Assembly: GCA_026397405.1 (NCBI GenBank)
Contig: JAPLUW010000001.1
Span: forward strand, 239,825 to 303,824
DNA: 64,000 nt
Direction: 5' to 3'
DNA from: Candidatus Adlerbacteria bacterium
GTDB lineage: Bacteria > Patescibacteriota > Minisyncoccia > Phycocordibacterales > SBAW01
Part shown: piece after piece, positions 17,582 through 40,689 of the stretch
How positions within the stretch are numbered: position 1 is the first letter of the stretch
Layout of the letters: the number at the start of each line of letters is the position of its first letter
The notes under the pieces: model-generated
What the model was told of the DNA's origin: nothing
Database searches by the model: none
Seen by the model: the letters and a program-made list of their open reading frames with translations, nothing else
Program-made: the position numbers and the translations under genes

Positions 17582-18790
17582 CTAGAGTCGCACACCCCAG
17601 AGCGAATGGTCTCCGCGAGTGATAAATAGTAGATACTTTCCGTCTGGCGACACCCCAAGTTGGTCAATGGGCGCGCTTGGTCCCCCATTGCCCGGCAACG
17701 TTACCACAACTCCTCCTCCACTATTTGCATCAAATTCTACAATACTGTCCGCCGTTTGTACGAGCCCTTGGTGCCACAAGTCTATGTAGTTTTGGGGTTG
17801 GGTATCGAGCGGCAGTGCGCAGTACAACGTATCGGCTGCAGTGCTGGCCCAAACACATTTTTCGGGCAGTGGTGTTTTTAAAATGTTAGCGTCTCTGCCT
17901 GCTTCAATGTCGTGTATATAGGTGTGCGGTGCGCTGCCGCTACCTGCGTTTGTTTGGTACACAACTTTTGTAAAGGTATTGTTTGCAATCGCCGACAACC
18001 CCGGGGTGTAGAGCAGTGGTGAAAGCCCGCCAGTTTTTGCGTTTATAGAAAATGCGATACCTGGCACCCCTGCGGCACTCTTTGTTTGTGCAATAAGTGC
18101 ATTTTGTGCAGGCCAGGAGAGTAACATTTGTGAAAGCGGCAGAGAAAATAGTTTTTTGCTACCTGTGCCGTCTATGTTTGCTGTAAATGCATTTGCACCA
18201 GTGGCAGTCGTAACTAGATACGCAAGGCTATGTTTGTCAGGCGACACCGTAAGTGACTCCATGCCGTTTGGCAAAAATTGCATACGGGGAGGTATGGCGG
18301 CGTTGGTTGAGGTTGCGGGCGTAAACGTTACGTACACACTTTTTATTACACCCAGCTCCACATACTGGAGTATCGTAGAAGTGCCGTGGTTACCCCACAA
18401 CACTTCGGTAAGGCCCGGTATGGTTACGTTAGAAATAGGGCGCACTGCGGCACCAGGCACGTCGACTGCGAGGTCGGATATATGCCCCGTATCCTGCATA
18501 ACGTAGCGGGCAATGGTTGTTGTTGGGTTAGATGTTTGTACAAACGTGGCACCAGCAACTGGCCCGTCGGCAATTTTAAACACACGCTGGAGAACCTGGT
18601 TCCCTACTTGTCCCGGAGTCGTCGAGTCCCCGACATTTGTTTGTGTTGTTGATACATTACCCCCAATGCCAAAAAAACCAGTCGACGGCGTTCCTGTGCT
18701 TGTGTTTGAGTGGAAAAAGAAAAACAGTAACAATAAAATTATTGCTAGAAAAACGAGCCCTCCTACTATGTAAATGGTTTTATTTTTCAT
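17582..18790 (-). CDS. membrane-anchored extracytoplasmic protein, last gene of the T4SS-like operon
   Basis: N-terminal TM (IYIVGGLVFLAIILLLLFFFF) and a Thr/Gly-rich ectodomain. A beta-propeller-like fold is only guessed. Confidence 0.45.
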   Translation of the reverse strand: MKNKTIYIVGGLVFLAIILLLLFFFFHSNTSTGTPSTGFFGIGGNVSTTQTNVGDSTTPGQVGNQVLQRVFKIADGPVAGATFVQTSNPTTTIARYVMQDTGHISDLAVDVPGAAVRPISNVTIPGLTEVLWGNHGTSTILQYVELGVIKSVYVTFTPATSTNAAIPPRMQFLPNGMESLTVSPDKHSLAYLVTTATGANAFTANIDGTGSKKLFSLPLSQMLLSWPAQNALIAQTKSAAGVPGIAFSINAKTGGLSPLLYTPGLSAIANNTFTKVVYQTNAGSGSAPHTYIHDIEAGRDANILKTPLPEKCVWASTAADTLYCALPLDTQPQNYIDLWHQGLVQTADSIVEFDANSGGGVVVTLPGNGGPSAPIDQLGVSPDGKYLLFITRGDHSLWGVRL

Positions 18791-19845
18791 TCAGTTTGTC
18801 CTAATACAGGCACTCCCCACACAGGATTATTTATAGGAAGCAAACATAATTCTCCTGGCGCGATATCCTTACAAGTATAGGCCCCTGAGTTTGCAAGATA
18901 ACTGCCTGCACACGTTGCTGGTACATTATCGAGCGGGTTAACACTTGTCAAAATGTCTTTGCCAAGTAGTTTGAGAGTAGCTGCGTACAACGGGCCAATT
19001 GGTGAAACTAGAAGACTAAGGCCCAGAACCCCAGTGCCAACTTGTATGTTGGTGCCAGTTTCGTACACCACTCCGTTTTTTCCATTTGCTGTTTGGCAGG
19101 CATTTCGCAGTGCTGCGGTTTGATCTTGTGCTGGGGCTGTCGCTATTCCTACCGCTGTTGAAGGATTTAATATGTTGCATGCAGTCACCAACTGGGGGTT
19201 GATGGTATTTAAAATAATATATGAACTTAACAACAGCAACAGCCCCCACACAGCCGCTTGTATACGTCGGCGAGCAAAGTCTTTTTTGTTTACCACCTCC
19301 GAAATCATGTAGGTAATACCTCCAAGTACTAAAAACAGCACTGCAACCATACCACCTAGGTAGATAAGTAGCTTAAAAATCAAATTTATCAGCTGGCAAA
19401 AATTTGTTTGCCCGTTGGTATTTTGGCCAGGGAGTGGTTCAAGCGGAACGTACGTTAAGTTTGGAGAAGAAGCTGAGCAAGCTCTTCCGCCTACAACACA
19501 ACTTGAACCCTCTGGGCATTTGCCTGCAGAATCAGGCATCCCAACAGGAGTTGCTTTTTCGTCGCTAACACACGTAGGTGTTGAAGCGGATATTGTTGAC
19601 TGTGTAGGTGCGGCTGGTTGATTTGTTGCTGCGGGCGCAGGGTTCGCTGGCGGTGTTGTATTTATTTTTGAGACACACTTTCCTGCGCAATCTGCAGCCG
19701 AATTAAATAAAGATGATACACCTGAACGACAACTAGTTACACATGCATTGTATGCCCCGATATCCACACCAGATTGTGAGTCAGCGAACGTGACGTAAGG
19801 TGTCAGTAATGCAAAAAATAGGAAAAAAATTATTGTTTTTTTCAT
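18787..19845 (-). CDS. secreted Cys-rich protein with a central two-helix pilin-like hairpin (TrbC/VirB2-like?)
   Basis: Signal peptide, many Cys. The central LINLIFKLLIYLGGMVAVLFLVLGGITYMI-basic loop-AAVWGLLLLLSSYIIL resembles T4SS pilin topology. Confidence 0.45.
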   Translation of the reverse strand: MKKTIIFFLFFALLTPYVTFADSQSGVDIGAYNACVTSCRSGVSSLFNSAADCAGKCVSKINTTPPANPAPAATNQPAAPTQSTISASTPTCVSDEKATPVGMPDSAGKCPEGSSCVVGGRACSASSPNLTYVPLEPLPGQNTNGQTNFCQLINLIFKLLIYLGGMVAVLFLVLGGITYMISEVVNKKDFARRRIQAAVWGLLLLLSSYIILNTINPQLVTACNILNPSTAVGIATAPAQDQTAALRNACQTANGKNGVVYETGTNIQVGTGVLGLSLLVSPIGPLYAATLKLLGKDILTSVNPLDNVPATCAGSYLANSGAYTCKDIAPGELCLLPINNPVWGVPVLGQTE

Positions 19846-20927
19846 AAGCCAAAGAATGATGAAATTGCCGAACCTGCACTTTGTCCAAATACAAGCTGCA
19901 GCCGTGTGTCTGCAGCTTGTATAAGTTGGGTGGTGTTGGTATTTTGCACAGTCACACCAATGTCAGCCGCGCCACTCCCACTCCCCGTCTGGCGCAGTGT
20001 AAGCATACCCTGTGCCGCTGCAGGGCCGGTAGTTTCTTGGTCGTTTAACTGCCATGTATAGACAAGCGTTTTATTTTTTACACTGTTAGTTGCAAAAAAA
20101 TACGGCTCTGCTTGCAGCGTAATTTCTTTTTGTGCAAGTGATGCCTTGTCCCTCAACCCTTCTTCCAACAACTCTCCGCGCAGAGGGTCGCGTGCGTACA
20201 GCACCACCTGTGGCGCACTTGCAGGTATGACAATGTCCCCTCTTCCGACCGCCGAGTTGCCCGAGTATATAGTTACCGAAATATCCTCCTCTGTTTGTAG
20301 TTGGTCACCTTGGAAGGAAAATGCCGTTTTTCCCAACCCCGACGCGCTTGTGTCCGGGGTGTCGTTTCGCTTCCATTGGAAGGAAAGCTTGGCAGGGTCT
20401 ACCAGTTTGCCTCCGAGCATTACTGTAGGGAACGCTACAACGCGTAGGTTGGAACCTGCGCTGTAGAGTGGTTTGCCTACGTACAAAAGGGGTGTGTAGG
20501 TGTCTGCTTCCCATACTAGGTTGACAACCGACGGGTTAAACACAAAGTCGCGTGTCATCACCCCAAGTGTCGGCGAGTTAATGACAAGGTGGATGTACGT
20601 TACAGCACCCACCCCGCCTGTCGTAAACGTAAACGACTGTTGCCCTGCGAATGCCTCAACCACCTTGCCGTTTTCCTGCCAGGTAAGGCTGGAGTTGCCC
20701 AAAAATTGCCCAACGCCGTTTACTTCTATATTTACTAATTGGTTTGGTCCTGGGTTTTCGGGCGAGATAATAAACTGCAACGGGTCAGGCACCGCCGACT
20801 GCGCATGTGCAAGTGACGTAGTTACAAAAAAAAGTGCGAATATGCCAATGAGTAATTTATGCCGCATGTGGAATTGGAGTAGCCTCAGTAGTGTTGAAAG
20901 ATTGTCTAGGATGTCGGATACCATCAA
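19842..20927 (-). CDS. secreted protein, unknown function (T4SS-like operon)
   Basis: The signal peptide begins at the internal Met (MRHKLLIGIFALFFVTTSLAHA), so the true start is probably 20867. Overlapping start/stop with neighbours. Confidence 0.45.
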   Translation of the reverse strand: MMVSDILDNLSTLLRLLQFHMRHKLLIGIFALFFVTTSLAHAQSAVPDPLQFIISPENPGPNQLVNIEVNGVGQFLGNSSLTWQENGKVVEAFAGQQSFTFTTGGVGAVTYIHLVINSPTLGVMTRDFVFNPSVVNLVWEADTYTPLLYVGKPLYSAGSNLRVVAFPTVMLGGKLVDPAKLSFQWKRNDTPDTSASGLGKTAFSFQGDQLQTEEDISVTIYSGNSAVGRGDIVIPASAPQVVLYARDPLRGELLEEGLRDKASLAQKEITLQAEPYFFATNSVKNKTLVYTWQLNDQETTGPAAAQGMLTLRQTGSGSGAADIGVTVQNTNTTQLIQAADTRLQLVFGQSAGSAISSFFGL

Positions 20928-21564
20928 TATTTTTTAATTCGGCAGAGACCGCAGACCCTTGTCTGTCGCTTGCTGCGTTTTGTTGTACTTGCGTAGACGC
21001 ACCCTTGTCTCGCGCCATCTGCGCGGTCGCTTGGTTTATGCCCACAATGCCAAGCGCTGTGGCACCAAACACAGTTCCTGGTGCTAGTATTTTTGTAAAC
21101 GCCCCTTGTGCACCCCCTTCCAATTTTCTTTGTTCGGCTTTTTTGCGGACAACAGACATCACTGTCATCAAAGTCCACCCAGGTGCGTTGTTGAGGCCAG
21201 GTACAAGTTCCATAATTGCGCCAAAACCTGCATACCGCCCGTAAAACATGCCGCACAAACGGAGCAGTGCAACAAGGAGCAACCCTAGCGTAACGTCAAT
21301 GCACAGGTTTACGGCAATCCCAAGCCCTACACCAATAGGAATTGTATAGACTGCAAGTGCGTCAGCTGGGGTCGCCACTAACGCACCAGCAGCACCTCCT
21401 ATAAAACAACCAACCCGGTCTGCAATAGCTGCACCTAATGCGCACCCCGCAGCACCTCCTGCAAATGTCCCCGGGAATGCGCCAAATAGGAAAAAAGCAA
21501 ACGCCATAAATGCCTGTGCGCCGTCTATAAGAAGTGCAAAAGCTATAAGTGCCGCTCCCTTCAT
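20857..21564 (-). CDS. Gly/Ala-rich polytopic membrane protein (T4SS-like operon)
   Basis: Multiple TM segments and GxxxG-rich. Confidence 0.45.
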   Translation of the reverse strand: MKGAALIAFALLIDGAQAFMAFAFFLFGAFPGTFAGGAAGCALGAAIADRVGCFIGGAAGALVATPADALAVYTIPIGVGLGIAVNLCIDVTLGLLLVALLRLCGMFYGRYAGFGAIMELVPGLNNAPGWTLMTVMSVVRKKAEQRKLEGGAQGAFTKILAPGTVFGATALGIVGINQATAQMARDKGASTQVQQNAASDRQGSAVSAELKNIDGIRHPRQSFNTTEATPIPHAA

Positions 21565-21598
21565 ACGTTCTATTGTACCGCGTTTATTTTTCTACTCG

Positions 21599-23419
21599 CT
21601 ATGCTTGTGCAGCAGCATCGGCTTTTTGTTTGCGAATAGCCAGCACTTGCGAAGGGTCGGAGGTAATTATTTGGTCTTCAGTGTATGAGGCTATCACTTT
21701 TATAGCTACGTGTTTTAAGCCCGCAAAAAATATTCCCTCCCCCACGTCCGACTCGAGCAACAAGTATTTTTCTTCGTCCGAGAGGTTAAACGTTTTTTGT
21801 AAATTGTCTATGGTTGTAGGCGACTGCTTAAGAAGCAACTGTATAGACGAGTTGGTTATCATGGGTAGCCCGTAGGGTGACTTTAAAAAGTCGTCCACGT
21901 CTTGAGTAATGGTTGCAAGCCCCAAGTAATATTTGCGGCCGCGCTTTGCCATACTGTACAAAAACGAGGCGGTGTCTTCCGACTTCATCATCCACCAGGC
22001 TTCGTCTATAACCAACAAGCGTTTTTTGAGGTTTTTGCGTACCGTGTTCCATATATAGTGGGTAATAAGGTACATGGCGACGGGCTTTAGGTCGTCTTCC
22101 ATGTCGCGGACAGAAAATACAACAAACTTTTTGTTGATGTCGACGTTGGTTGGCTGGTTTATAAACCCCGACCATGTTCCTTTGGTGTACTTTGACAAGC
22201 GCTGTCCCAAAGACTCGCTGCCGTCCATGCCGGCCAACACTGTTTCAAAGTCGGAAAGCAACGGAGGTTCTATTTCTGCGAAATTTGAGTCTATAGTGAT
22301 GTCTTTAAGTGCATACGTTTCAGTAATTGCCTTGTCGATAATAGCGTCTTCTTCGGGCGAAAGGCCTCCAAGCATAATGCGGAAGAGCCCTACCAAGGCA
22401 ACAATGTTGGAGCGCAAAATGTCTGCAGGGTTTTCGTCTTCGCGGGGTATCGGCAGGTCAAAGGGGTTGATATGGTGCTCGGACGAAAGGGAGATATTAA
22501 AGTACCGCCCGCCCACTGTCTGGCTCAAAAATTCGTACTCGCGTTCGGGGTCTATGACGATAACTTCGGTGTCAAACATGAGTGTGCGTAAAATTTCGAG
22601 CTTGGTGGTGTAGCTCTTGCCCGAACCCGACTTGGCAAAAATAACTGAGTTGTAGTTTTCGAGGCTAAAGCGGTCAAAGAGCACAAGCGATGCGTTGTGG
22701 CGGTTAACGCCATACAAAATACCTTTGTCGGAGGTAAGGTCGAACGAAACAAAGGGGAAAATTGATGAAAGCGGGGACGAATTGAGTTTGGAATGTACCT
22801 GCAACTCGTCGCGACCAATAGGCAGGGTGCTTTTAAAGCCCTGCTCTTGCTGGAAGAGCGCGGGTTTTACATATATAAGGCGCGACTCGAGCATTGACTT
22901 AATCTCCGACTCGGTTTTGTCGAGCTCTTCGACTGTTTTGCCGTAGACCGTAATGTACACACCCACGTCAAATATCTTTTCCTCTGCTTGCTGCAGTTGG
23001 TCGCGCAGGTCTTCTAGGTCTTTATATGCAGTGTCTAAAATAGGGTCACGCACCAAGCCTTTTTCTTCCCGCGACATAATTTGGCTCTGTACCTCGGCCA
23101 CCTTTTTTTGGAATTTTTTCAAAATGTCTGCGGAGTCTATAGGGTGCACAAAAATAGATATGTCTAAAACGCGGTCGAGGTTAATGACCGGCGCAAACCA
23201 CGAGTCTGTTAGTGTGCGCGGGTACGACATGACAAAAAATGTGCGGGCAATTTTGTCGCCTAAGTTAATTTCCCGCGGGGTGATTTTTAAAGCACTCGGT
23301 GCAATGACATCTTGCAGTTCAAGCACGCCCTGCTTGTAAATTTGCTCGGGCATAATAGGTGCCAGAGACGATGTGCGAGGGTCGTCAGTTTTTGTTTTTA
23401 AAAAATCAAGGAGTGCCAT
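21599..23419 (-). CDS. VirB4/TrbE/CagE-family T4SS ATPase (major fragment)
   Basis: Walker A FAKSGSGKS and Walker B LLVIDEAWWMM. N-terminal FFVMSYPRTLTDSWF motif region. Confidence 0.85.
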   Translation of the reverse strand: MALLDFLKTKTDDPRTSSLAPIMPEQIYKQGVLELQDVIAPSALKITPREINLGDKIARTFFVMSYPRTLTDSWFAPVINLDRVLDISIFVHPIDSADILKKFQKKVAEVQSQIMSREEKGLVRDPILDTAYKDLEDLRDQLQQAEEKIFDVGVYITVYGKTVEELDKTESEIKSMLESRLIYVKPALFQQEQGFKSTLPIGRDELQVHSKLNSSPLSSIFPFVSFDLTSDKGILYGVNRHNASLVLFDRFSLENYNSVIFAKSGSGKSYTTKLEILRTLMFDTEVIVIDPEREYEFLSQTVGGRYFNISLSSEHHINPFDLPIPREDENPADILRSNIVALVGLFRIMLGGLSPEEDAIIDKAITETYALKDITIDSNFAEIEPPLLSDFETVLAGMDGSESLGQRLSKYTKGTWSGFINQPTNVDINKKFVVFSVRDMEDDLKPVAMYLITHYIWNTVRKNLKKRLLVIDEAWWMMKSEDTASFLYSMAKRGRKYYLGLATITQDVDDFLKSPYGLPMITNSSIQLLLKQSPTTIDNLQKTFNLSDEEKYLLLESDVGEGIFFAGLKHVAIKVIASYTEDQIITSDPSQVLAIRKQKADAAAQA

Positions 23420-23438
23420 AAGAAGTTTCTCTATACTA

Positions 23439-24107
23439 TCATTTTGCTACTTGTGTTACCTGCAGGGGTTTTTCAAGTTCGCCTGGGTTAAAGAGTTTGT
23501 AGAAGAGTTCAATAATTTCCTCTGTCCCCAACCCCACCACACGCACCCCGGTACGTATCAACCCTTGTTCTATAACCGAGACGCGTTGTTCAAGCTGGAC
23601 ACGATACTCTTCAAACTGCTCGTCTGTCAGTGCCCCACCCCCGCTCGTACCCTTTGATGGCAACAGCGCGTTTACTATGCCGGTAATACCACTGCCGCGT
23701 GCAACAAGTGCTGGGTCGTAGGGCACTACTATAAAAAAGTTTTTGGTCATAATGTTTGACCGTGCCGTAAAGTCTTTAATGAAGGCAATGTATTCTTGTA
23801 TTTGGATCTTCATCAGGTCGTCCAGTTCAGCCTTGTAACGAGCCTCCAATAAACCAATATATGGCCGGATATCGAGGTCTCGTGACTGTATAAAAAATTG
23901 TGCGCTAAATTCGAGTGAGTTAAGGAAGTTTTGGAACTGCCCAATTATCGCCGCCTGCTCATCCTGCGACTTTAAGGCTAGGTTGATAGACGATGCCATA
24001 AGCAACGACCGTAAACTGCCATCTTTTAAAATAATAATGCCGCCACGTACCTCTTGTATGGGTACAAATTCTTGTGTTGCCTGCGCTTTTACTGTGTTGT
24101 CAGCCAT
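23439..24107 (-). CDS. possible N-terminal segment of a Gram-positive-type VirB4 encoded as a separate ORF
   Basis: VPIQEVRGGIIILKDGSLRSLLMASSINLALKSQDEQAAI resembles the extreme N-terminus of PrgJ/TcpF-type VirB4, from my memory of the family. It is 19 nt and one frame away from the 606-aa ORF. Confidence 0.45.
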   Translation of the reverse strand: MADNTVKAQATQEFVPIQEVRGGIIILKDGSLRSLLMASSINLALKSQDEQAAIIGQFQNFLNSLEFSAQFFIQSRDLDIRPYIGLLEARYKAELDDLMKIQIQEYIAFIKDFTARSNIMTKNFFIVVPYDPALVARGSGITGIVNALLPSKGTSGGGALTDEQFEEYRVQLEQRVSVIEQGLIRTGVRVVGLGTEEIIELFYKLFNPGELEKPLQVTQVAK

Positions 24108-24109
24108 AA

Positions 24110-24541
24110 TTATACGTTATTTGTCTCCTTTAGAGCGGCGTGTTCTTTAATATTGAGCGACCAGGCAAGGTCTTTAAGGCGACTATCGGAAAGTTTAGGT
24201 ACGATGATAGCTGCAGGGGTACTACTTGCCGGAGTTACTACCTGCCCTTCCCCAGCAGAAGGGAGGCGTTGTTTCCACAAATACAATTTGCTGCCGACAA
24301 AATACCCAAACGCATGTTCTATGGCGTGCACAAACGGGCGGCCGTTCACTTCATAAAATGCGAGCGCCAAAGAAAAACCAACCACAGGCAATGAGAGCGT
24401 GATAGTTATATACAGTGGCAATAGGCTAAAAAAAACAAGGCAGAGTCCCCCGCCCCCGGCCAAGTAGATAAATTGCTTCAGCGTAAGAGGGCCGAATATT
24501 TTATCTTCAACTTCGATAAATTGAGGAACTTGGTAGCGCAT
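24110..24541 (-). CDS. PrgI/VirB3-like small T4SS membrane protein
   Basis: MRYQVPQFIEVEDKIFGPLTLKQFIYL is followed by two TM helices. It sits between the VirB6-like gene and VirB4, as prgI does. Confidence 0.5.
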   Translation of the reverse strand: MRYQVPQFIEVEDKIFGPLTLKQFIYLAGGGGLCLVFFSLLPLYITITLSLPVVGFSLALAFYEVNGRPFVHAIEHAFGYFVGSKLYLWKQRLPSAGEGQVVTPASSTPAAIIVPKLSDSRLKDLAWSLNIKEHAALKETNNV

Positions 24542-24584
24542 TCCCCATTAGTATATATCAGTTTCCGCATGCAGTGCGGAGTAA

Positions 24585-25157
24585 TTACTCAACCGGTTCG
24601 CGATACGGGTCGGTTTTGTATATAGGACGAGGTGCGGCAGTCGCAACTGTTTTTTCTGTGAGCATTTTTTCTGCTGTAGGCATAGAAATTGCGGGTATGA
24701 CAGGGGTAGGTGTCGGAGCACTAGGTCCATCCAGGGGAGCGGCTGTTGCAGGAATGATAGTAGGAAGTGCTGGAGCTGTGGTGACCATAGGTAAGGAAGT
24801 ACGGGGCTCTTCGGGTATGGCTTGAATTTTTTTTGTATCGGTAAAGTGTTTGAGAGCTTCACGTATAGGGGCAAACACTTCAGCACTTATCTCGCCGGCA
24901 ATTACTGCAGCATCTGCGGCTGGTATGGCAAGCTGCTCGGCAATTTGTTGGTTAAATGTGTCGGGGTCAAAAAAACCAAGCATGACAAGCATTGTTTCGT
25001 CTTCCAATTTTCCTACCTGGTCGATATGCAGGCCATGCTTTTGCCCAATAGCGCGAATATGTGTACCCATGTCAGCCGAAAGCACTGCGTCACGCACCTC
25101 TTGCGGTAATTCCGCGAGCCTTTCCTCTATTTGTGTTTTTGTTGAATTCTCTTCCAT
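24585..25157 (-). CDS. hypothetical protein with a Pro/Thr-rich C-terminus (T4SS-like operon)
   Basis: 190 aa, sits in the operon gap. Confidence 0.4.
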   Translation of the reverse strand: MEENSTKTQIEERLAELPQEVRDAVLSADMGTHIRAIGQKHGLHIDQVGKLEDETMLVMLGFFDPDTFNQQIAEQLAIPAADAAVIAGEISAEVFAPIREALKHFTDTKKIQAIPEEPRTSLPMVTTAPALPTIIPATAAPLDGPSAPTPTPVIPAISMPTAEKMLTEKTVATAAPRPIYKTDPYREPVE

Positions 25158-25180: not shown

Positions 25181-27652
25181 TTATGCCTTAGGAATATCTT
25201 TTGGCGTTGGGGGTTTTGTTGGTCCGGTCCGGCGTATTCTCTCAAGAGTGCTTCTCATTGCGGGGACATCAGCTCGATTAATTGTAGGTCTTTCATTTTG
25301 CACAGGTGCTAGGCCATTGGAATTGGTGACGAACCCTGTTCCAGCCCGGCTCTTGTCTACCGGAGTCTGGGGCCTCGTTGGATTTTTTTGTGGTTCTACT
25401 ATGGTTTGTTGCTGGGTAGACTCTCTAGATTTTTGAGTTTGTATTGAAGAGAGAGTCTTTTTCCCTTCTCTTGCCAGCCGGGTCTGTTCCTGTTCTTCAG
25501 TGAGTTGAGCTTTTTCAAGCCTGTTGGTTTCTCGCAACCTCGATGCTATTTCTCTAAAGATTGGGCTGTCTGTTATTTCAGTATTTGCTGCTGTCCCAAG
25601 GCCTCCTGGTCTTTGTGCATCTTGCCGAATAGCAGCTTTGGTTAGAGGGCTGCCTACAATTGGAGGAGTAACTACAGGAGGAGGGGTAGGGATTAATTTT
25701 TTCATGGCATCAATGGCTTCTTCTACGTCACTTTTGCCCTTTGCCATCTTGCGGACCTTTAAGGCTCCTTCAATACTACCCAGTGACGGCCCTACTGCCC
25801 TGCCCAGAATAGGGATATCTCTCGCGAAGCCCAGGTTGCCAAGGCTGTCTTCACCTATTCTCTTCTCATATCGTCCCAATCGCGCATTATCAAGTCGTTC
25901 TATTTTCTTCTTTCCGCCTTCTAAATATGGTCCCAATTGAATTTGTATGGCTTTCAGATCCGCTGCCGCTTTGTTTTTTTCCTCCGGACTAGAGGCTTGT
26001 TTAAAGAGTTCTTTGTTCATAAGTTCTGCAAGCTCCAGAGATTTCTTTTGAGTCTCAAACCCAGCTTCTCCGCCTTTGTGATTTTTCTTTAATTTCGCAA
26101 ATTCTCTCTCCGCTTTTTCTTTTTCAGCCGCAGTACTGTTCATATCCTTTGCGTTAGCCTCAACGGTTTTGGCACGGTCTGCAAATTGTTTTGCAATACC
26201 TCCCTTTCCACCGGCCTTGCCAGCATCAATGCCAACTTTGCCTAGTACTGATTTTAGGCCGGACACTCCTCGCACATCCATGCTTGCACCCGCAACCCCT
26301 TTCAGTGCTGCCATGGTCGGTCGCCCAAACACACTATTTGCCGCAAAGTCGCGCATAGTCTGGCTCCGTGCAAGAGCATTTGCGGCACGTCCCGCGGTGT
26401 TGCGTGCAGCCCAGGCCGACGTGCCCGCGCCCATTTGCGCCGCTTTGCCACCTGCCCAGCTGGCGATATTTTGCCCAGCAAGGCTGGTATGTGAGCTAAA
26501 CGAGTTCGAAAATTTAAGCGCAGCAAACATCATAATAGTAATCAACCCCACGCGCACGCCAACGCCCGCAATTATCAAGATAATAGCCTCAAAACCTTTT
26601 CCTCCTAATGCAGTATAAAAAATAGACGGTATAACCCCACCTGTTCCCGCAAGTTCTTTTAGGAACAAGGTAATTATCAAGAACATAAACAGGAATATTG
26701 CCGGGTAAAATGTTGACTCTATAAGGTGCTTTTGCCAAATCACGTACCCTTCCTTTGCGTACTTAACATGCGGCAATGCTTTTGCTGCAAACGCCAGCGG
26801 TGCAAAAATAATTACAAACCATAGCGTGATAATGCGTATCAAAAACTGTATACCAACAGAGAAAAAGACAAATGCTATCAACGCAAACATAATAGCCACA
26901 GCCGTGTATACAAGTATTTGTATACCTACAGTAGCCAAGAAACCACTAAATCCTGTTTGCTGGTTGGTAAAATTTTGAAACGATTTGTCACTGAGGAGAT
27001 TTTGTACCTGTACTGCGTTCATAATCCCAGCGCTCAAGTCTTTTATAAGTGGGTTGCCGCCCGCAAGTGGCGAGGCTCTGGTTGCGGCAATCTTTGGGTT
27101 GTTTGGGTCGCGTACATCTATAGCGTTATAAAACTGTATGGCTAAAATGTTGCCTGCGTCTATGACAATACGCGTTATAAAAAAGCTAAAGTTAATAAGC
27201 AGCGCCATAGTTACCACCATAGCCAGGGTCTTCATGGTGCCAGAGGTTTCTGCTTCGACAATTATTGTATAGGCAATGTATATAAGGATAAACACAAAGA
27301 CCAAGTTGGCTATGTCACGGACCATTGCCCACCCCTGGGAAAGGAAGTCGAGTGCATACGAGGTGCTGTTGAGCCCCAGCTGCACACCAAAATTAAATAC
27401 ATACGCACCGACATACACGAGGCCGCTTGTCCACGACACCGTAAAGATATACACAATAGATCCGATACATGTATCAACGGAGTTGCAAAAACTAGTACTG
27501 GCAGGAGGTGCACCAGCGCCTTGTGCATGCGCCACTGCCGGTGTCCCAAGCACGGCCAGTGCAGGCGAAAACACAACCACAAGCAACACAAAAGCGGTTG
27601 CAATACGTAATGCAATTTTTAGCTTTGATGAATGTAGAAATTTAGAAAGCAT
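25181..27652 (-). CDS. VirB6/TrbL/PrgH-like polytopic T4SS membrane protein with a long charged C-terminal tail
   Basis: Signal peptide, at least 6 TM in the first 400 aa, then an approx. 420-aa hydrophilic Lys/Ala/Gly-rich region. Confidence 0.55.
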   Translation of the reverse strand: MLSKFLHSSKLKIALRIATAFVLLVVVFSPALAVLGTPAVAHAQGAGAPPASTSFCNSVDTCIGSIVYIFTVSWTSGLVYVGAYVFNFGVQLGLNSTSYALDFLSQGWAMVRDIANLVFVFILIYIAYTIIVEAETSGTMKTLAMVVTMALLINFSFFITRIVIDAGNILAIQFYNAIDVRDPNNPKIAATRASPLAGGNPLIKDLSAGIMNAVQVQNLLSDKSFQNFTNQQTGFSGFLATVGIQILVYTAVAIMFALIAFVFFSVGIQFLIRIITLWFVIIFAPLAFAAKALPHVKYAKEGYVIWQKHLIESTFYPAIFLFMFLIITLFLKELAGTGGVIPSIFYTALGGKGFEAIILIIAGVGVRVGLITIMMFAALKFSNSFSSHTSLAGQNIASWAGGKAAQMGAGTSAWAARNTAGRAANALARSQTMRDFAANSVFGRPTMAALKGVAGASMDVRGVSGLKSVLGKVGIDAGKAGGKGGIAKQFADRAKTVEANAKDMNSTAAEKEKAEREFAKLKKNHKGGEAGFETQKKSLELAELMNKELFKQASSPEEKNKAAADLKAIQIQLGPYLEGGKKKIERLDNARLGRYEKRIGEDSLGNLGFARDIPILGRAVGPSLGSIEGALKVRKMAKGKSDVEEAIDAMKKLIPTPPPVVTPPIVGSPLTKAAIRQDAQRPGGLGTAANTEITDSPIFREIASRLRETNRLEKAQLTEEQEQTRLAREGKKTLSSIQTQKSRESTQQQTIVEPQKNPTRPQTPVDKSRAGTGFVTNSNGLAPVQNERPTINRADVPAMRSTLERIRRTGPTKPPTPKDIPKA

Positions 27653-29747
27653 TACATTGTTGGAGCTTTACGGCAGTTTGCTGGTTTAAGGCGTTCATTT
27701 GGCTCTGGAGTGTTGTGCGGTTTTGCTGTGCGTTGACCACGTCATTTTGTGTCGGGATTTTGCCAGAATTCCGCGTCGTGTTGTAGGTAGCCGTTACTGA
27801 ATTTACGTCTGCTGTAGAGCCTGCCGAAAGCGCCTGGCTCTGGAGTTGTTGCATAACAATAATACTATTGTTTGCTGCGGTTATGCGGTCGTTGTAGGCG
27901 TTAATTGTAACGTTCAGCGCATCAATGGTGCTCGACGCTTGTGCGGCGTTTGACTGTGCCAGGCCATATTTTGGTGATGTGCTTGCAACATTGTTCCAAC
28001 AATCAACAAGGTTGTGGAGCTGCTGTTGTGAATTTTCAATATCGCTAATGCTCCCCTGTTGTATTGATGCGTACTGTTGTATGTATGACACATCGCCTTG
28101 CATTTGTGTTAGGAGTGCCTGCCCCAGGTCTTGGGCTTGCAGTTGGTCGGGGCTGTAGAAGTTGCTGCTGTAGCCGCCTGCGCCGCTCAAGTTTGAAAGG
28201 CCCGACTGCAATGTGCGTGTAAGGAGTTGGGTAATGAGCGCACCAAGGATTTCGTCGAAGCTTTTTGCCAAGTTAAGTCCGTCGAGAGAACCATCTAAAG
28301 TTTTTGACAGAGAACTCTCGATTATCTTGCCCGGGGTTGTAGTTTTAAGGTCACAGACTCTATAGTGAGTACCTGCAGGCACTTCTATTGGTTTAACAGA
28401 TTTACCTGGTGAAGTTGCAGGTGCAGAAGTACCCACGTCTTTACAGTTGCTTTCTTCTTTAAAGTCTAAGAACCCCCCGGCTTGTAATAGGTTTGTTTGT
28501 GTTTGGCCTTTTGCCTGCGAGGTTGCCGCATTGAGGCTGACTGACGCAAACATAAATGCGCCGTAGGGGTTGTTGGTCGGCATGGTGGTAAAAGCAATCA
28601 TCCCCGCCCAGTTGCCTGAAAGGAAGTTCCCGGCCATAAAGTTGTTTATGTTTTTTATAATGCCCGTTAAGGTACAAGAGTTGGCATTACGTTGGGCGTA
28701 ACTGCTGGCTATGGCTATTTTTATCTGCAACTGGAAGGGGCTGCACAAAAACGACAATGCACTGCTTTGTATAAATGTGCCCGCTGCGTTGTCGGCAACG
28801 TTAGTAAGGAATTTGCTTGGGTCCTGTACAAACGATGGCGAGCCCTTGAAACCGGAGTTGATCCAGTTCACCACGCTGTTGGTTATTTGCTGGATAGCTA
28901 TTTTTGCAATAGTGCGGGCAATACAACCAAGAAAAGTGTTAACAGAAAATGCTCCGTTTTCGGCACCTACTCCTGCGCCTGCCGTTCCTGCAAGGGCAGT
29001 TGTTCCAGCTACTTCCGCAATCACTTGGCCAACATTTACTTCCATAACGCTAAAGGGCATAAGCGTCGCCATAGTAACTACTCCTGGAGCTTGTGCGGCA
29101 GCTGCGGTTCCGGCTGCAGTTGTAAGGCCGAGCGCTTGCATTGCAAGACTAATACCAGTCGAGGCACCGCAGACAAGTGCGCCGGCGCCAACTGCTATGG
29201 CTGCAGTGCCCGCAAGCCCAAGCCCCCCGCCACCTCCAGCCCCTTGTTGCCCATTGCCGCTGATGCCAATGTCGGGGATAACGCCCCCACCCGTTGGGTT
29301 TGAGTCGAGAATGTTGTTTATTCCTATAGGGTTAAAGACAGTGCCAGGGAAGCCACTGTTTGTAGGAGTAGCTGTTCCTGGGGCAACACCAGAAAGCCAG
29401 ATAACACCCGGCACACCGTTTACACCACCAACCACCCCACCGCCGCCGGTTGCAGTGCCAACGTTCCCAAGTTGTACGTTGGTTTGAGTTTCGGTACCTC
29501 CGTTTTGAGGAAGCGTAGTGCCTACATTGTTTGCCCCGGTAGCCCTGGTACCATTTGTACTACCTGAGTTTGCTGCCGTACCGAAGGTTCCATTTGTGGG
29601 TATTTGTGTGGGTGCCTGGCGGAAAAACCACCACCACGCAAGTAGTACGAGTGCTAGTACTGCGAGTGCGGTGAGGATGATATAAATTACTTTTCGCATG
29701 TGGTTTCTTCCCGCAGTATTTATTGTGGGGTTCCAAACAAAGCCCAC
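27642..29747 (-). CDS. large secreted Gly/Thr/Ala-rich protein with a C-terminal Gln/Asn-rich coiled region
   Basis: TM/signal at MRKVIYIILTALAVLALVLLAWWWF, so the likely start is 29699. Long low-complexity Gly tracts. Confidence 0.5.
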   Translation of the reverse strand: MGFVWNPTINTAGRNHMRKVIYIILTALAVLALVLLAWWWFFRQAPTQIPTNGTFGTAANSGSTNGTRATGANNVGTTLPQNGGTETQTNVQLGNVGTATGGGGVVGGVNGVPGVIWLSGVAPGTATPTNSGFPGTVFNPIGINNILDSNPTGGGVIPDIGISGNGQQGAGGGGGLGLAGTAAIAVGAGALVCGASTGISLAMQALGLTTAAGTAAAAQAPGVVTMATLMPFSVMEVNVGQVIAEVAGTTALAGTAGAGVGAENGAFSVNTFLGCIARTIAKIAIQQITNSVVNWINSGFKGSPSFVQDPSKFLTNVADNAAGTFIQSSALSFLCSPFQLQIKIAIASSYAQRNANSCTLTGIIKNINNFMAGNFLSGNWAGMIAFTTMPTNNPYGAFMFASVSLNAATSQAKGQTQTNLLQAGGFLDFKEESNCKDVGTSAPATSPGKSVKPIEVPAGTHYRVCDLKTTTPGKIIESSLSKTLDGSLDGLNLAKSFDEILGALITQLLTRTLQSGLSNLSGAGGYSSNFYSPDQLQAQDLGQALLTQMQGDVSYIQQYASIQQGSISDIENSQQQLHNLVDCWNNVASTSPKYGLAQSNAAQASSTIDALNVTINAYNDRITAANNSIIVMQQLQSQALSAGSTADVNSVTATYNTTRNSGKIPTQNDVVNAQQNRTTLQSQMNALNQQTAVKLQQCNAF

Positions 29748-30613
29748 GACGCTCCCGGCTCGTCCTTAGTAAAAAGTATACCGTTTTTCCCAAGTGCTTG
29801 CGCGATATTTATAAACATTTTGCCACCATCTTGGGCGAATGAGTTGTATTGCTGGATACCCGAGAGGCCGCGCAGTGGGTCCGACAGCACAGTTTGCATG
29901 TCTGCATATGTTGCAATCATTTTTGCAAAGTCGTTCAACAGCCCTAAGTGAAAAGGAAGAAGTGTTTTCGGTACGTCTATAGCAAGCATGCCCTTTATAA
30001 ACACAGCATACTTTTTTTGGATGGCCGGGAACTCTTTAAATTGGATTGGGTCGTTGGTTGCGGTAACAGTGTCAATAATCGCCAGCGTTTTAAGGAATTC
30101 TCCGTTTGCATTTTTCTTAAAAACAGTCATCAACGCATTGCCATAGTCGTGCAAACTCGTGGGTGAATTGTCAGTAGCCGTAATATCAGCCTCACTATAT
30201 TGTTTTGTAGGCTGCGTCGTTCCAATTTGGGCAAGTGCGCCATTAATAAGTTCGTTTTGTGTTGGGATGTCGTCTCCGAGGCCTTGGGTTTTTGCATTGC
30301 TTAAGTTAACAAGCAAGGTACGTGAAAGGCGGTCGGTAATATTTGAGCTTTGCGCCGCTTGTAAAAGGTTGTTGACATCATTTTGGTCGGCCGGGGTTGG
30401 GAGGTTGGTTCCCGACTCTGCCTGTACCGTGTCGAGCGTCGTTTGCCAATTTGGGTCGGTAGTACCTGCATGCGGTGTCTGCGCAACTGTAATAGTGGGC
30501 GCCGGAGCATGTGTTGTAAATGCATTCGCTGCAAATACGAGCCCTACTGAAAGTAATATAGAGCCAAAAATAACGGAAAATTGCGTACTGGGGAAATATT
30601 TTGGTACCTTCAT
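29720..30613 (-). CDS. secreted protein, first gene of the T4SS-like operon
   Basis: Signal peptide MKVPKYFPSTQFSVIFGSILLSVGLVFAANA, 297 aa. Confidence 0.5.
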   Translation of the reverse strand: MKVPKYFPSTQFSVIFGSILLSVGLVFAANAFTTHAPAPTITVAQTPHAGTTDPNWQTTLDTVQAESGTNLPTPADQNDVNNLLQAAQSSNITDRLSRTLLVNLSNAKTQGLGDDIPTQNELINGALAQIGTTQPTKQYSEADITATDNSPTSLHDYGNALMTVFKKNANGEFLKTLAIIDTVTATNDPIQFKEFPAIQKKYAVFIKGMLAIDVPKTLLPFHLGLLNDFAKMIATYADMQTVLSDPLRGLSGIQQYNSFAQDGGKMFINIAQALGKNGILFTKDEPGASWALFGTPQ

Positions 30614-30620
30614 TTACCTA

Positions 30621-30651
30621 TAAGTATACCGTTGTTTTTGGAGTATACTTA
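30621..30651. promoter_or_regulatory. Inverted repeat TAAGTATAC-N13-GTATACTTA in the divergent promoter region upstream of the T4SS-like operon
   Basis: Perfect 9-bp arms, read directly from the sequence. Confidence 0.35.
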
Positions 30652-30659
30652 TTTTATAT

Positions 30660-37313: not shown

Positions 37314-38489
37314 CTACTTGCCCGGCAGCGGCAGTATAGGTGCTTGCAACAAGCGAGAAATAATTTCACGCAATGTGCCAGCGTTGGTTGTTATAACAAT
37401 TGTCTGTCGGTCTAGAAAGGTCCAGAGGAAATTAAGCGACCCGTCCGCGCTTGTAAGTATCCGTGCGTTGTGGTTTTCGACAATTACGTCAAAAAAGTTA
37501 GTCTGCAAAAATTGTGCCGACCCAGCACTTTGCTGCGCGCGCACACCAGGGGCTGGAGTGTACGCAAACAAAGGCGAGAGGTCGGCCTTCATGCTTGTTT
37601 CCCACGCTAACATTCCTGCATACGCTTGTTCGTATGAGTCGACTTTAATAATCAAAAACGGCTGGTTCAGTCCAAACGAATGTACACCAAGCAAGTACAC
37701 CGGCTGCACCGCACGCAATAAATTACCCGGGATGTCGGGTGCAAGCGCCGCAAGTAATGTGGGTGCATCGACATACTGCGTTACAGAGTCGCTGCTTGTG
37801 GCAGGAGTTTGTATATACAATTGCGCAATCAACCCAAGAGAGAGGTTTACAGATTTTTTTGCCTGCACGAGCTGGTTCATCACCGCGCTTGGTGTTGTGT
37901 TTTGAGACATCGACACGAGGGTTGTGCCGTCGACGGCAATAAACGGCGCAGCATTTGGTGACCCTGCCGGGAGCGGTGCGTTAAATACATACACGTAGTG
38001 CACCAGTACCCCTGCGGCAATAACCAGCAACACACTCGCTGCAATAAGTACGACAGTACGGAGTGTGTGTTTTGGCTGGGTGGCCTCTATGAGTTCGTGT
38101 ATTTCGAGGCTCTTCTTGCTGCGCCTCTCTGCCTCTGCTGCGGCGATGGAAACAACTGAAACATGCTTTCCTTGGACGACACGTTCCACATCGCCTTGGT
38201 ATGTCTGTAAATTACGCACATCAGACGACTCCGCTTCTACAAGAGGTTCTGGTGTCAGAGCAGAAGCTAATACAGGGACCACCTCTGGTTTTGGTTCTGC
38301 AAGCGTTGCCCCCAGTTCTTGCGCCAAAAGTGCGCCCGCGTTTATGCGCTGCGCAGAGTCGACGGACGGGCCGTCTTTTTTTGGTAGGAGGATTTTACCT
38401 AGGTCTATCTCCCCCGCCCCCGAGTGTTGGTCCTGTGGTTCTGGTGGCATTGTTTTGTGTAGACGGCGCGAGACCCTTACGTGCAGCAA
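37314..38489 (-). CDS. membrane-anchored hypothetical protein
   Basis: One central TM (LRTVVLIAASVLLVIAAGVLV) with no recognised domain. Confidence 0.45.
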   Translation of the reverse strand: MLHVRVSRRLHKTMPPEPQDQHSGAGEIDLGKILLPKKDGPSVDSAQRINAGALLAQELGATLAEPKPEVVPVLASALTPEPLVEAESSDVRNLQTYQGDVERVVQGKHVSVVSIAAAEAERRSKKSLEIHELIEATQPKHTLRTVVLIAASVLLVIAAGVLVHYVYVFNAPLPAGSPNAAPFIAVDGTTLVSMSQNTTPSAVMNQLVQAKKSVNLSLGLIAQLYIQTPATSSDSVTQYVDAPTLLAALAPDIPGNLLRAVQPVYLLGVHSFGLNQPFLIIKVDSYEQAYAGMLAWETSMKADLSPLFAYTPAPGVRAQQSAGSAQFLQTNFFDVIVENHNARILTSADGSLNFLWTFLDRQTIVITTNAGTLREIISRLLQAPILPLPGK

Positions 38490-40650
38490 ACTCTGGGTCA
38501 GCTCCTTTTATAGAGAGGTTGATGCGGCCTTTTTCGTCTATCTCTTTAATCATAACCCGTACTTTCTCTCCAACAGTTACGACACCTGCAATTTTCTCAA
38601 TTCTGAACGGCGCAATTTCAGACACGTGCACCAACCCTTCGGCATCTTTGCCGGGGCCAATACGCACGAATGCACCGAAGTCCATCAAACGAGTTACTTC
38701 ACCTTCGTATACTTCGCCCGGTTTATATTCTTTGACGAGCGCCTCGATCATGCCTTTTGCTTTTTCGGCGCTTCCGTTTTTGCCGGTGATAAAGATAGAG
38801 CCATCGTCTTCTATAGTAATATCTGAAACAGCAGTGACATCTTTAATGCCGTTGATAGTCTTTCCTCCCCCGCCAATGACCAAACCAATTTGGTCGGGGC
38901 GTACGTGCATCGTAATAATTTCCGGTGCGCGCGGGTTTATGTGTGCACGTGGTGCGGCAATTTCTTTTTCAATGACATCAAGGATATGCATGCGCGCTGC
39001 TTTTGCGCCGGCCAGTGCTTCAACCAAAATAGGTACCGGCACGCCGTCGAGTTTAATGTCCATCTGTATCGCAGTCACACCAGTGCGCGTACCTGCAACT
39101 TTAAAGTCCATGTCGCCGAACTCGTCTTCAGGACCTTGGATGTCGGTCAATACTTTGTAGCGTCCGTCGCCATTCATCGAAAGCATCAACCCCATGGCGA
39201 TACCTGCAACCGGTGCCTTCAGCGGCACGCCGCCGTCCATCAGTGCAAGAGTTGATGCACAGACTGAACCCATCGATGTCGAGCCGTTGCTTGCCAAACA
39301 TTCCGACACTAGGCGAATGGTGTAGGGAAATTCTGCAACAGACGGTATCACTGCTTCGAGCGCTTTTTCTGCAAGTGCACCGTGCCCTGTTGCGCGGCGG
39401 TTAATGCCGCCAACACGACCTGTCTCCCCTGCCGAGTACGGCGGGAAGTTGTAATGATGCATGAAACGTTTTTTAACGTCGTGCTCTTCCATCGAGTCAA
39501 TAACCTGTGAATCACCGGGCCCACCGAGTGTGAGTGCAGAAAAGACGTGTGTACCGCCACGGTAAAAAATACCCGAGCCGTGCAAGATGTCCGACACCCC
39601 ACCTGCTTTTGCAAACAGTGGGCGCACCTCTGTGAAACTGCGGTTGTCTGCACGCATGTCGCGTTCAACTGCGCCGTGGTGGATTTCTTCATCTACTTTG
39701 TCTTCCAAGAAACGTTTTGCTATGGCTAATGGAACCGAATATTCCTGAAGAAAAGTCTGGCCGTGCGAAGCAAGGGAGTCCGAGGACTTTTCGGAAGGAA
39801 CATTCGGTGTAGTGAGACGCTTCATCCATTCATGTTGTACTTCGTGGATAGCGTCTTTGCTTGGGACTCCACAGAAAACTGCATCACTTAATTTTTGTTT
39901 AAATTCTGTTTCAAAAAGTTCTGTGAGCGCTGCAGGAACTTCCGGTTTCGGTGCTTCGCGTTTTACTTTGCCGACTTCTGCAATTATTTTTTTCTGCCAT
40001 TCTAAAATTTTATCGTGCTCGGCTGTTGCGCGTACAAAGCCGGCAGCAACATCGTCTTCACTCGCCTGTTTGGCAGCAACTTCAATCATGTTTATTGTGC
40101 CGTCTTTACCGCACGCCAAAATGTCGAGCACTGTCTCTGCACGCTGTGCGTATGTTGGGTTTACTATAAAATCTCCCGTTGCATTTTTCCCAATGCGCAC
40201 CGCAGCAACTGGCCCACCCCATGGGATGTCCGATGTTGCCAATGCAAGTGACGCTGCGTTTACGGCAATAGAGGCAGGGTCCTCTTCATCAAGCGCAAGC
40301 ATAGTGATGATCACCTGCATCTCGTTCCGCATATGGTGCGAAAACAACGGGCGTATGGTGCGGTCAACAACGCGGCCTGTCAGTATTGCTTGCTCGCTTG
40401 GTCTGCCTTCGCGACGTACAAAACGGCTGCCGCCAATGGTGCCGGCTGCATAAAAACGTTCTTCGTATTCGACAGAGAGCGGAAAGTAGTCGATATCGTC
40501 ACGTGTGCGGTGCGACATCACAGCTGTAGCCAACAGTGCCGTGTTGCCGTAGCGGACAATAACCGACCCGTTTGCCTGCTCGGCTAGGTCGGTAAATTCG
40601 GCCGAAAGTACCTTCCCGCCTATGGTTGTTTCAAATTTTTTCGATTTCAT
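38395..40650 (-). CDS. pnp: polyribonucleotide nucleotidyltransferase (PNPase)
   Basis: Two RNase PH domains followed by KH and S1. Start chosen at MKSKKFETTIGG. Confidence 0.95.
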   Translation of the reverse strand: MKSKKFETTIGGKVLSAEFTDLAEQANGSVIVRYGNTALLATAVMSHRTRDDIDYFPLSVEYEERFYAAGTIGGSRFVRREGRPSEQAILTGRVVDRTIRPLFSHHMRNEMQVIITMLALDEEDPASIAVNAASLALATSDIPWGGPVAAVRIGKNATGDFIVNPTYAQRAETVLDILACGKDGTINMIEVAAKQASEDDVAAGFVRATAEHDKILEWQKKIIAEVGKVKREAPKPEVPAALTELFETEFKQKLSDAVFCGVPSKDAIHEVQHEWMKRLTTPNVPSEKSSDSLASHGQTFLQEYSVPLAIAKRFLEDKVDEEIHHGAVERDMRADNRSFTEVRPLFAKAGGVSDILHGSGIFYRGGTHVFSALTLGGPGDSQVIDSMEEHDVKKRFMHHYNFPPYSAGETGRVGGINRRATGHGALAEKALEAVIPSVAEFPYTIRLVSECLASNGSTSMGSVCASTLALMDGGVPLKAPVAGIAMGLMLSMNGDGRYKVLTDIQGPEDEFGDMDFKVAGTRTGVTAIQMDIKLDGVPVPILVEALAGAKAARMHILDVIEKEIAAPRAHINPRAPEIITMHVRPDQIGLVIGGGGKTINGIKDVTAVSDITIEDDGSIFITGKNGSAEKAKGMIEALVKEYKPGEVYEGEVTRLMDFGAFVRIGPGKDAEGLVHVSEIAPFRIEKIAGVVTVGEKVRVMIKEIDEKGRINLSIKGADPEFAARKGLAPSTQNNATRTTGPTLGGGGDRPR

Positions 40651-40689
40651 GCATACACTGTAAGCCAAAAACACCCTCCCGCCTATTAC

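Follow-up and report, generated by a model that had tools for sequence, protein, structure and literature searches.

A conserved gene pair heading a type IV secretion operon of Candidatus Adlerbacteria encodes predicted exported proteins, one of them a candidate host-contact subunit

The DNA analysed here is a stretch of 64,000 nucleotides (contig JAPLUW010000001.1, positions 239,825 to 303,824, assembly GCA_026397405.1), hereafter the window, from a metagenome-assembled genome (MAG) of Candidatus Adlerbacteria (Patescibacteria/candidate phyla radiation, class Paceibacteria). Its minus strand carries a co-directional operon of 11 genes for a type IV secretion system (T4SS), and the first two of these genes, named g297 and g685, are the subject of this work. 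They are followed by g823 (VirB6-like), g190, the PrgI/VirB3-like gene, the TrsD-like gene, VirB4, g235, g361, the VirB2-like pilin gene and g402 (Table 1). An earlier note, based on the letters of the window, had described two open reading frames (ORFs) of 297 and 701 codons leading a T4SS-like operon; both ORFs exist, and the T4SS genes do lie downstream of them on the same strand. The g297 product is 100% identical to that of NT019_01405 at NCBI (297 amino acids). The second ORF, 27642-29747, yields 701 amino acids when read from a GTG, and an ATG at 29699 yields 685. Because GGGAAG precedes this ATG and the resulting length equals that of the NCBI annotation, we adopted the shorter form, which on these sequence grounds most likely has the true start; it is identical to MCX6819927.1 (685 amino acids, NT019_01400). 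The 3' end of g685 overlaps the start of g823 by 11 nucleotides.

Table 1. Features of the operon and its surroundings (positions in the window; residues are those of the 297- and 685-residue products)
Feature	Position	Strand	Basis or remark
g297	29720..30613	-	bitopic or exported all-helical protein (predicted), first operon gene
g297 N-terminal transmembrane (TM) anchor or signal-anchor, residues 10-33	30515..30586	-	AlphaFold2 helix 10-33; conserved hydrophobic block with GL..AA motif
g297 invariant loop motif QGLGDDIPTQ, residues 110-119	30257..30286	-	alignment of 65 sequences
g297 C-terminal four-helix bundle, residues 150-297	29723..30166	-	AlphaFold2
g685	27642..29699	-	exported modular protein (predicted); 701 amino acids if GTG at 29747 is used
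g685 N-terminal TM anchor, residues 3-27, conserved LWWWFF end	29619..29693	-	Kyte-Doolittle; AlphaFold2
g685 linker, residues 31-258, Gly/Thr/Asn- then Ala/Gly-rich, low-complexity	28926..29609	-	composition; predicted local distance difference test (pLDDT) score < 50
g685 central domain, residues 259-515	28155..28925	-	column conservation 0.7-0.83
g685 Gln/Asn-rich bundle of four long helices, residues 516-685, stapled by Cys567-Cys682	27645..28154	-	AlphaFold2
g823, extended VirB6-like polytopic membrane protein	25181..27652	-	directly downstream of g685
g190	24585-25157	-	no family match
PrgI/VirB3-like	24110-24541	-	Pfam PrgI 4.3e-9
TrsD-like, resembles VirB4 N-terminus	23439-24107	-	NCBIfam TrsD 1e-8
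VirB4	21599-23419	-	NCBIfam conju_CD1110 7e-117; Pfam TraG P-loop 3e-26
g235	20857-21564	-	no family match
g361	19842-20927	-	no family match
VirB2-like pilin	18787-19845	-	Pfam T4SS_pilin 3.4e-6
g402	17582-18790	-	no family match
Operon remainder after g823	17582..25157	-	collinear in related loci
Intergenic region upstream of g297	30614-30659		GTATACT twice, 20 nucleotides apart
Pro/Cys-rich ORF, 145 amino acids	30660-31097	+	signal peptide; divergent from g297
LysM + Peptidase_M23 protein, 388 amino acids	34144-35310	+	few kb upstream of the operon
PNPase	38395-40674	-	
PilB-like type II/IV secretion ATPase	5335-7035	+	

Our scan of one genome per species uncovered 147 confirmed loci, of which the best 80 were analysed. 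The genomes sampled are those of Adler-, Nomura-, Kaiser- and Taylorbacteria together with unclassified MAGs of Paceibacterota or Parcubacteria, and some bear an unconfirmed submitter label 'Saccharibacteria'. Both genes have well over 100 homologs each in Patescibacteria metagenomes, at 37-88% identity, and the 11-gene order is collinear in the 80 loci wherever the contig allows. The g297 profile recognised a homolog immediately before the g685 homolog in 73 of 79 loci; of the remaining six, four lie at contig ends, and in the other two (L021 and L024) the ORF caller overextended the g685 start and tblastn finds g297 there. The gap between the two genes is -26 to +20 nucleotides in 71 of the 73 loci, with +74 in L003 and +944 in L078 as exceptions, and the pair is probably translationally coupled. 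When the g685 core (residues 259-685) was run with HMMER against 1.84 billion representatives of 50%-identity clusters, it matched 4,167 of them at E <= 1e-3, 3,011 at E <= 1e-10 and 814 at E <= 1e-30. This synteny and the size of the family argue that the gene pair is a class-wide core part of the T4SS and not a strain-level accessory. The proposal that the two proteins form a lineage-specific module is therefore to be read broadly, as the operon invariably includes the pair throughout a class-level radiation of some 3,000 clusters; a lack of conservation in related T4SS loci, which would have spoken against that proposal, is the opposite of what was found.

Between the window and its closest genome, the ratio of nonsynonymous to synonymous substitution rates (dN/dS) is 0.15 for g297 and 0.10 for g685, with 0.024 for VirB4 as a comparison. 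Within g685 it is 0.03 over residues 259-410 of the core, 0.055 in the bundle and highest, at 0.20, in the linker. Both genes are thus real and under purifying selection, which is strongest on the central domain of g685.

The g685 product combines an N-terminal anchor, a linker, a central domain and a C-terminal helical bundle. Over residues 3-27 the Kyte-Doolittle 19-residue mean reaches 2.8, and AlphaFold2 models a helix at residues 2-26 with a pLDDT of 89-95. The linker is composed largely of G (27%), T (15%) and N (12%) over residues 31-160 and of A (26%) and G (17%) over residues 161-258, contains 3% charged residues and is predicted to be disordered throughout. The central domain holds the Cys319-Cys342 and Cys419-Cys449 pairs and a beta-hairpin at residues 413-454. 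In the bundle, Q makes up 16% and N 11% of the residues, and the four long helices are modelled with a pLDDT of 93-98. The anatomy read earlier from the letters, with hydrophobic N-termini in both proteins and, in the larger one, Gly/Thr/Ala tracts before an ordered centre and a Gln/Asn-rich helical C-terminus, is borne out by composition and by the structure prediction that had been proposed as a check. The structures matched are generic helical bundles only. The description of both proteins as low-complexity fits g685, with low-entropy windows over 53% of its residues, and not g297, where such windows cover 10% (linker, residues 25-55).

The cysteines of g685 give a further indication of where the protein may reside. 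Across 79 species-level homologs its eight cysteines act pairwise, as four pairs: 50 homologs have the full set, 20 lack C177 and C259 jointly, three lack C419 and C449, and one lacks C567 and C682, and the cysteine count is even in 74 of the 79. As the cysteines are kept or lost pairwise, the pattern reads as the signature of disulfide pairs in an exported protein. The charged fraction is 8.3% in g685, whereas cytoplasmic proteins encoded in the window have 21-28%, and a low charge is common to the other predicted exported members of the operon.

The g297 product is modelled confidently as an all-helical protein (mean pLDDT 82.5) made of helical hairpins and a four-helix bundle. Within its loop motif, Q110, G111, G113, D115, P117, T118 and Q119 are invariant in 65 aligned sequences. 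We found 159 homologs at 37-86% identity, and among the roughly 120 homologs listed the length is tightly kept at about 293-305 amino acids. The structures matched by g297 are generic four-helix bundles only, and neither the protein nor its family matched Pfam, NCBIfam, PHROGs or PDB sequences. In the divergent locus L084, a second, shorter g297-like paralog of 282 amino acids (2000-2848), which matches the four-helix-bundle part only, lies directly upstream of the regular g297 equivalent.

Relatives of g685 vary at both ends around the core. The region before the core ranges from 64 to 545 residues in the 79 homologs. The short forms have an ordinary, cleavable-looking signal peptide and almost no linker (signal peptide plus about 40-60 residues in L054, L079, L082 and L084). 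Some of the long forms carry PG_binding_1 repeats inside the linker, which would therefore lie in the wall zone. At the other end, the bundle is changed or replaced: P0467 (L082) ends in an F5/8-type-C domain and a bacterial surface Ig-like domain, P0450 (L084) in an F5/8-type-C domain, P0466 (L083) carries PKD domains both within the bundle and after it, and P0375 and L033 end in Big_2 repeats. The central domain is the only part common to the variants with other C-termini. Three of these variant relatives were placed in context, and they occupy the same slot, after a g297 homolog (hidden Markov model E-values 1e-24 to 1e-60) and before a VirB6-like gene; PrgI, TrsD-like and VirB4-like genes follow in L082 and L083, where the contig extends. 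The F5/8C, PKD, Big_2 and Ig-like domains belong to the relatives only and are absent from the g685 of the window. Adhesins and receptor-binding proteins are built in this way, with a conserved inner domain and an exchangeable outer module of lectin or Ig type. The swappable C-terminal module is the strongest support for a role in host contact, and of the two proteins put forward as candidates for an adhesin or host-contact module it concerns g685 only.

We therefore favor a model where g297 and g685 are extracytoplasmic structural subunits of the Paceibacteria T4SS, with g685 as its surface or host-contact subunit, VirB5-like or adhesin-like in function, and we give this reading a probability of roughly 0.55. 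In this model, g685 would be exported and, in this genome, tethered by its N-terminal helix, and the nearly uncharged, flexible linker of variable length would cross the cell-wall zone. The highly conserved, disulfide-bonded central domain would dock the protein to the secretion machinery; the VirB6-like platform is the most plausible site, with g297 and the VirB2-like pilin taking part, and these partners are proposed because of the coupling of their genes. The C-terminal module, here a disulfide-stapled four-helix bundle, would be the distal, surface-exposed end that touches the host cell. The role of g685 would then be comparable to that of VirB5 (tip or stalk) in diderm T4SSs or of PrgB- or TraN-type adhesins in conjugation, and g297 would serve as its membrane-tethered, all-helical partner or assembly factor.

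Among the closest known systems are the conjugative mating adhesins PrgB (pCF10), TraO (pIP501) and TraN (F-like plasmids). As is proposed for g685, they are encoded with a T4SS, lie at the surface and combine a region that spans the wall or serves as a spacer with a binding module at the distal end. TraN is likewise Cys-rich and disulfide-stabilised, and PrgB shares Ig-like and lectin-type domains with the g685 relatives. However, no homology to the three was found. The g685 protein has no LPxTG sorting signal (no LPx[TSA]G motif occurs in g297 or g685), its anchoring, if any, would be N-terminal, and its gene is chromosomal, at the head of an operon and coupled to a VirB6 gene.

Several observations weigh against the model. 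The central domain of g685 was modelled with low to moderate confidence (pLDDT 37-90) and matched no fold, and the matches of the C-terminal bundle were generic helical bundles, with no Foldseek match at E <= 1e-3. The two closest genomes gave no sign of diversifying selection on the bundle, which is conserved and not hypervariable (dN/dS 0.055). A TM anchor at the N-terminus is unlike a pilus-tip protein unless it is cleaved, and the interaction of g297 with g685 is suggested only by the invariant adjacency of their genes. In addition, hhalign comparison of g685 with an alignment of 41 VirB5 sequences (TrwJ relatives, from R388, NC_028464) gave a probability of 2.6-4%, P of 0.010-0.018 and a score of 22.3-26.5, far below accepted thresholds, and the Pfam VirB5 family (PF07996) was matched at E <= 0.01 by 0 of 68 members of the g685 family.

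A more specific version of the model is offered tentatively. The g685 family may be the missing host-recognition subunit of the essential, non-conjugative T4SS of Patescibacteria, with a conserved, disulfide-bonded docking domain that sits on the VirB6 platform or the pilus in place of VirB5 and an exchangeable distal module that sets which host cell is attached to and tapped; g297 would be its dedicated membrane-bound partner. The g685 proteins might then represent a fold and family not recognised before, one that defines a monoderm pilus-tip or stalk complex.

The VirB5 comparison also bears on another explanation, that g685 is truly homologous to VirB5, though extremely diverged; as a minor pilin or stalk protein, it would form an oligomer on the VirB6-like platform, nucleate the VirB2-like pilus and end at its tip after cleavage of the anchor. 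VirB5 proteins fold as an elongated three-helix bundle with a small globular appendage. The hhalign score did exceed those of all 65 controls (60 column-shuffled alignments reached at most 21 and five reversed ones at most 19.4), and residues 601-640 of g685 were aligned with the most conserved helix-turn-helix of VirB5. The gene context is also that of virB5: g685 overlaps and directly precedes a VirB6-like gene, as in virB5-virB6 and trwJ-trwI (in R388 the latter two are separated by one small lipoprotein gene), in a T4SS locus with a VirB2-like pilin in the same operon, and this arrangement is kept in the 80 loci. Score and gene position are weak pointers to VirB5 under the favored model too. 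Because the profile signal amounts to a hint, we did not assign g685 to the VirB5 family. The protein shows no significant sequence or profile similarity to that family (Agrobacterium VirB5, pKM101 TraC, R388 TrwJ, Helicobacter pylori CagL; PF07996) and is three times larger. Its TM anchor, its low-complexity linker of about 230 residues and its disulfide-bonded domain of about 260 residues have no counterpart there, so that the most conserved part of g685 is the one that VirB5 lacks (residues 259-515, P = 0.33 by hhalign). The bundle, where the resemblance lies, is dispensable and is replaced by lectin- or Ig-like domains in some relatives. No protein of the window matches PF07996 at E <= 0.1, none of 65 g297-family members does so at E <= 0.01, and the comparison of g297 with the VirB5 profile gave noise. 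We consider a true VirB5 ancestry unlikely. When g685 was itself compared as a VirB6-like protein, only noise from TM helices was obtained.

We rate lower, as quite doubtful, the explanation that g685, possibly with g297, is an envelope-spanning scaffold, the monoderm counterpart of VirB10 or VirB8, that stabilises the passage of the channel or pilus through peptidoglycan. A TM anchor followed by a long flexible linker and a conserved distal domain does resemble the layout of VirB10, PG_binding_1 occurs in the linker of some homologs, and no VirB8 or VirB10 equivalent was recognised in the operon. The size and bitopic topology of g297 are those of VirB8; like VirB8, PrgL and ConB, it is a small bitopic protein (about 230-300 amino acids) with an N-terminal TM segment and an extracytoplasmic domain, universal in its own T4SS lineage. 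However, g297 is predicted to be all-alpha instead of having the NTF2-like fold of these proteins, with which it shares no sequence similarity. Many g685 homologs consist, before the core, of a signal peptide and a linker of only about 40-60 residues, and discoidin, PKD and Ig-like modules are typical of surface ligand binding, not of a buried scaffold.

The conservation pattern of g685 makes it very improbable that the protein is a new kind of enzyme that remodels the cell wall and, in place of VirB1, opens the peptidoglycan for the T4SS. The residues conserved in at least 95% of the 79 homologs are W, I, N, G, F, P, L, C, T and A only, among them the motif WINxGFxGxPxF at residues 279-290. 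No acidic, His, Ser or Lys residue reaches this level, which argues against an enzyme, and the conserved cysteines appear to form disulfide pairs and not a nucleophile. As a VirB1 hydrolase of the SLT, CHAP, NlpC-P60 or M23 type, g685 was rejected: it matched no such family in Pfam or NCBIfam and lacks the catalytic residues, and no hydrolase family was matched among 68 members of its family, nor was any hydrolase fold. More generally, g685 and its family matched nothing in Pfam, NCBIfam, PHROGs or PDB chains other than coiled-coil noise and PG_binding_1 in three homologs, and the window holds no paralog of the g685 core. The statement of the earlier note that the canonical VirB set explains neither protein is thus upheld, with a VirB5 profile probability of at most 4%, and no clear homology to VirB5, VirB1 or CHAP-domain proteins emerged. 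Its preference for a fibrous surface or pilus-tip protein over an enzyme agrees with the missing catalytic residues and the paired cysteines as far as a structural or adhesive role is concerned; a place at the pilus tip is inferred. What speaks for an enzyme is that no VirB1, SLT or CHAP protein was recognised inside the operon and that PG_binding_1 occurs in a few homologs. According to one survey, Patescibacteria often lack VirB1 in the vicinity of virB4 (PMC12102498). The gene for a LysM and Peptidase_M23 protein upstream of the operon, kept in 65 of the 80 related loci, could plausibly stand in for the missing VirB1 cell-wall hydrolase. The lack of catalytic residues and the retention of this peptidase gene nearby make a hydrolase role for g685 unlikely.

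It is likewise hardly to be expected that the pair is unrelated to the T4SS, as general envelope proteins near oriC or as substrates or effectors, for although the whole region from uvrD/ksgA to jag/yidC/dnaA is syntenic, so that the adjacency could in part be that of a frozen origin-proximal region, the pair shares strand and spacing with the T4SS genes, with a tight g297-g685 gap and the overlap of g685 with the VirB6-like gene, accompanies them even in divergent loci with other surroundings, and is universal and single-copy where effectors are usually variable.

The operon itself is flanked by uvrD/ksgA on one side and jag/yidC/rnpA/dnaA on the other, next to oriC. No relaxase or coupling protein was found among the large ORFs of the window, and the operon is therefore apparently not used for conjugation. 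It appears to be of the same type as the Patescibacteria T4SSs described by Quinonero-Coronel et al. 2025 (PMC12102498) and Wang et al. 2023 (PMC10633639), which are related to MPF-FATA systems, comprise TrsD, PrgI/VirB3, VirB4, VirB6 and VirB2-like pilins, lie near dnaA, dnaN, rnpA and ksgA (an origin-proximal position, PMC12102498) and have no relaxase. The surveys, as far as they are accessible, report components detectable by existing profiles only, with no adhesin and no VirB5 within the Patescibacteria clade (PMC12102498, PMC12857230, PMC10633639), and note that a pilus may be made (PMC12102498, PMC12857230). The g297 and g685 families are not named in the accessible parts of PMC12102498 and PMC10633639, where an unnamed listing in a supplementary table is possible.

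Among the neighbors of the pair, g823 was recognised as VirB6-like through its family: six of 37 homologs matched Pfam TrbL/VirB6 (PF04610; best E-value 7.6e-8) with the window copy below threshold, and the family profile aligned with R388 TrwI at the conserved PL...W segment (hhalign P = 1.9e-4). The protein is an 'extended VirB6', in which the membrane domain is followed by a C-terminal tail of about 400 residues that is hydrophilic, of low complexity and rich in Lys, Ala, Glu and Gln, and its total length across species ranges from 614 to 1,074 amino acids. VirB4 function is split between a TrsD-like protein of 222 amino acids, which resembles the VirB4 N-terminal domain, and an ATPase of 606 amino acids; across loci these are 54-95% and 72-99% identical, respectively, except in one locus cut by a contig end. 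The pilin product has 352 amino acids and 14 cysteines, and its VirB2-like domain covers residues 148-215 only; the large N- and C-terminal extensions are unlike canonical VirB2 (about 100 amino acids). The genes g402, g361, g235 and g190 are collinear in most related loci. Three of the four products have N-terminal hydrophobic segments and low charge, and g190 is acidic and appears cytoplasmic.

The window also holds genes for PNPase and a PilB-like type II/IV secretion ATPase, and a preprint (10.64898/2026.06.21.733656) ties PNPase and VirB4 to RNA-based parasitism in the phylum. Directly upstream of g297, with the two start codons 46 nucleotides apart, lies the divergent ORF of 145 codons, which tblastn found at the same place and in the same orientation in 27 of the 80 related loci. 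Its product matched neither Pfam nor PHROGs and may regulate the locus or be one more exported component. No sigma-70 consensus turned up in a promoter scan upstream of g297, and the region with the two GTATACT copies may be a non-canonical promoter or operator.

The Patescibacteria T4SS is essential for epibiotic growth in the one genetically tractable species. A gene pair that is invariant across the Paceibacteria, the largest class of the phylum, that is coupled to the VirB6 gene and in which g685 has the modularity of an adhesin provides a concrete candidate for host contact. If this role is true, the type of C-terminal module could predict host range from metagenomes.

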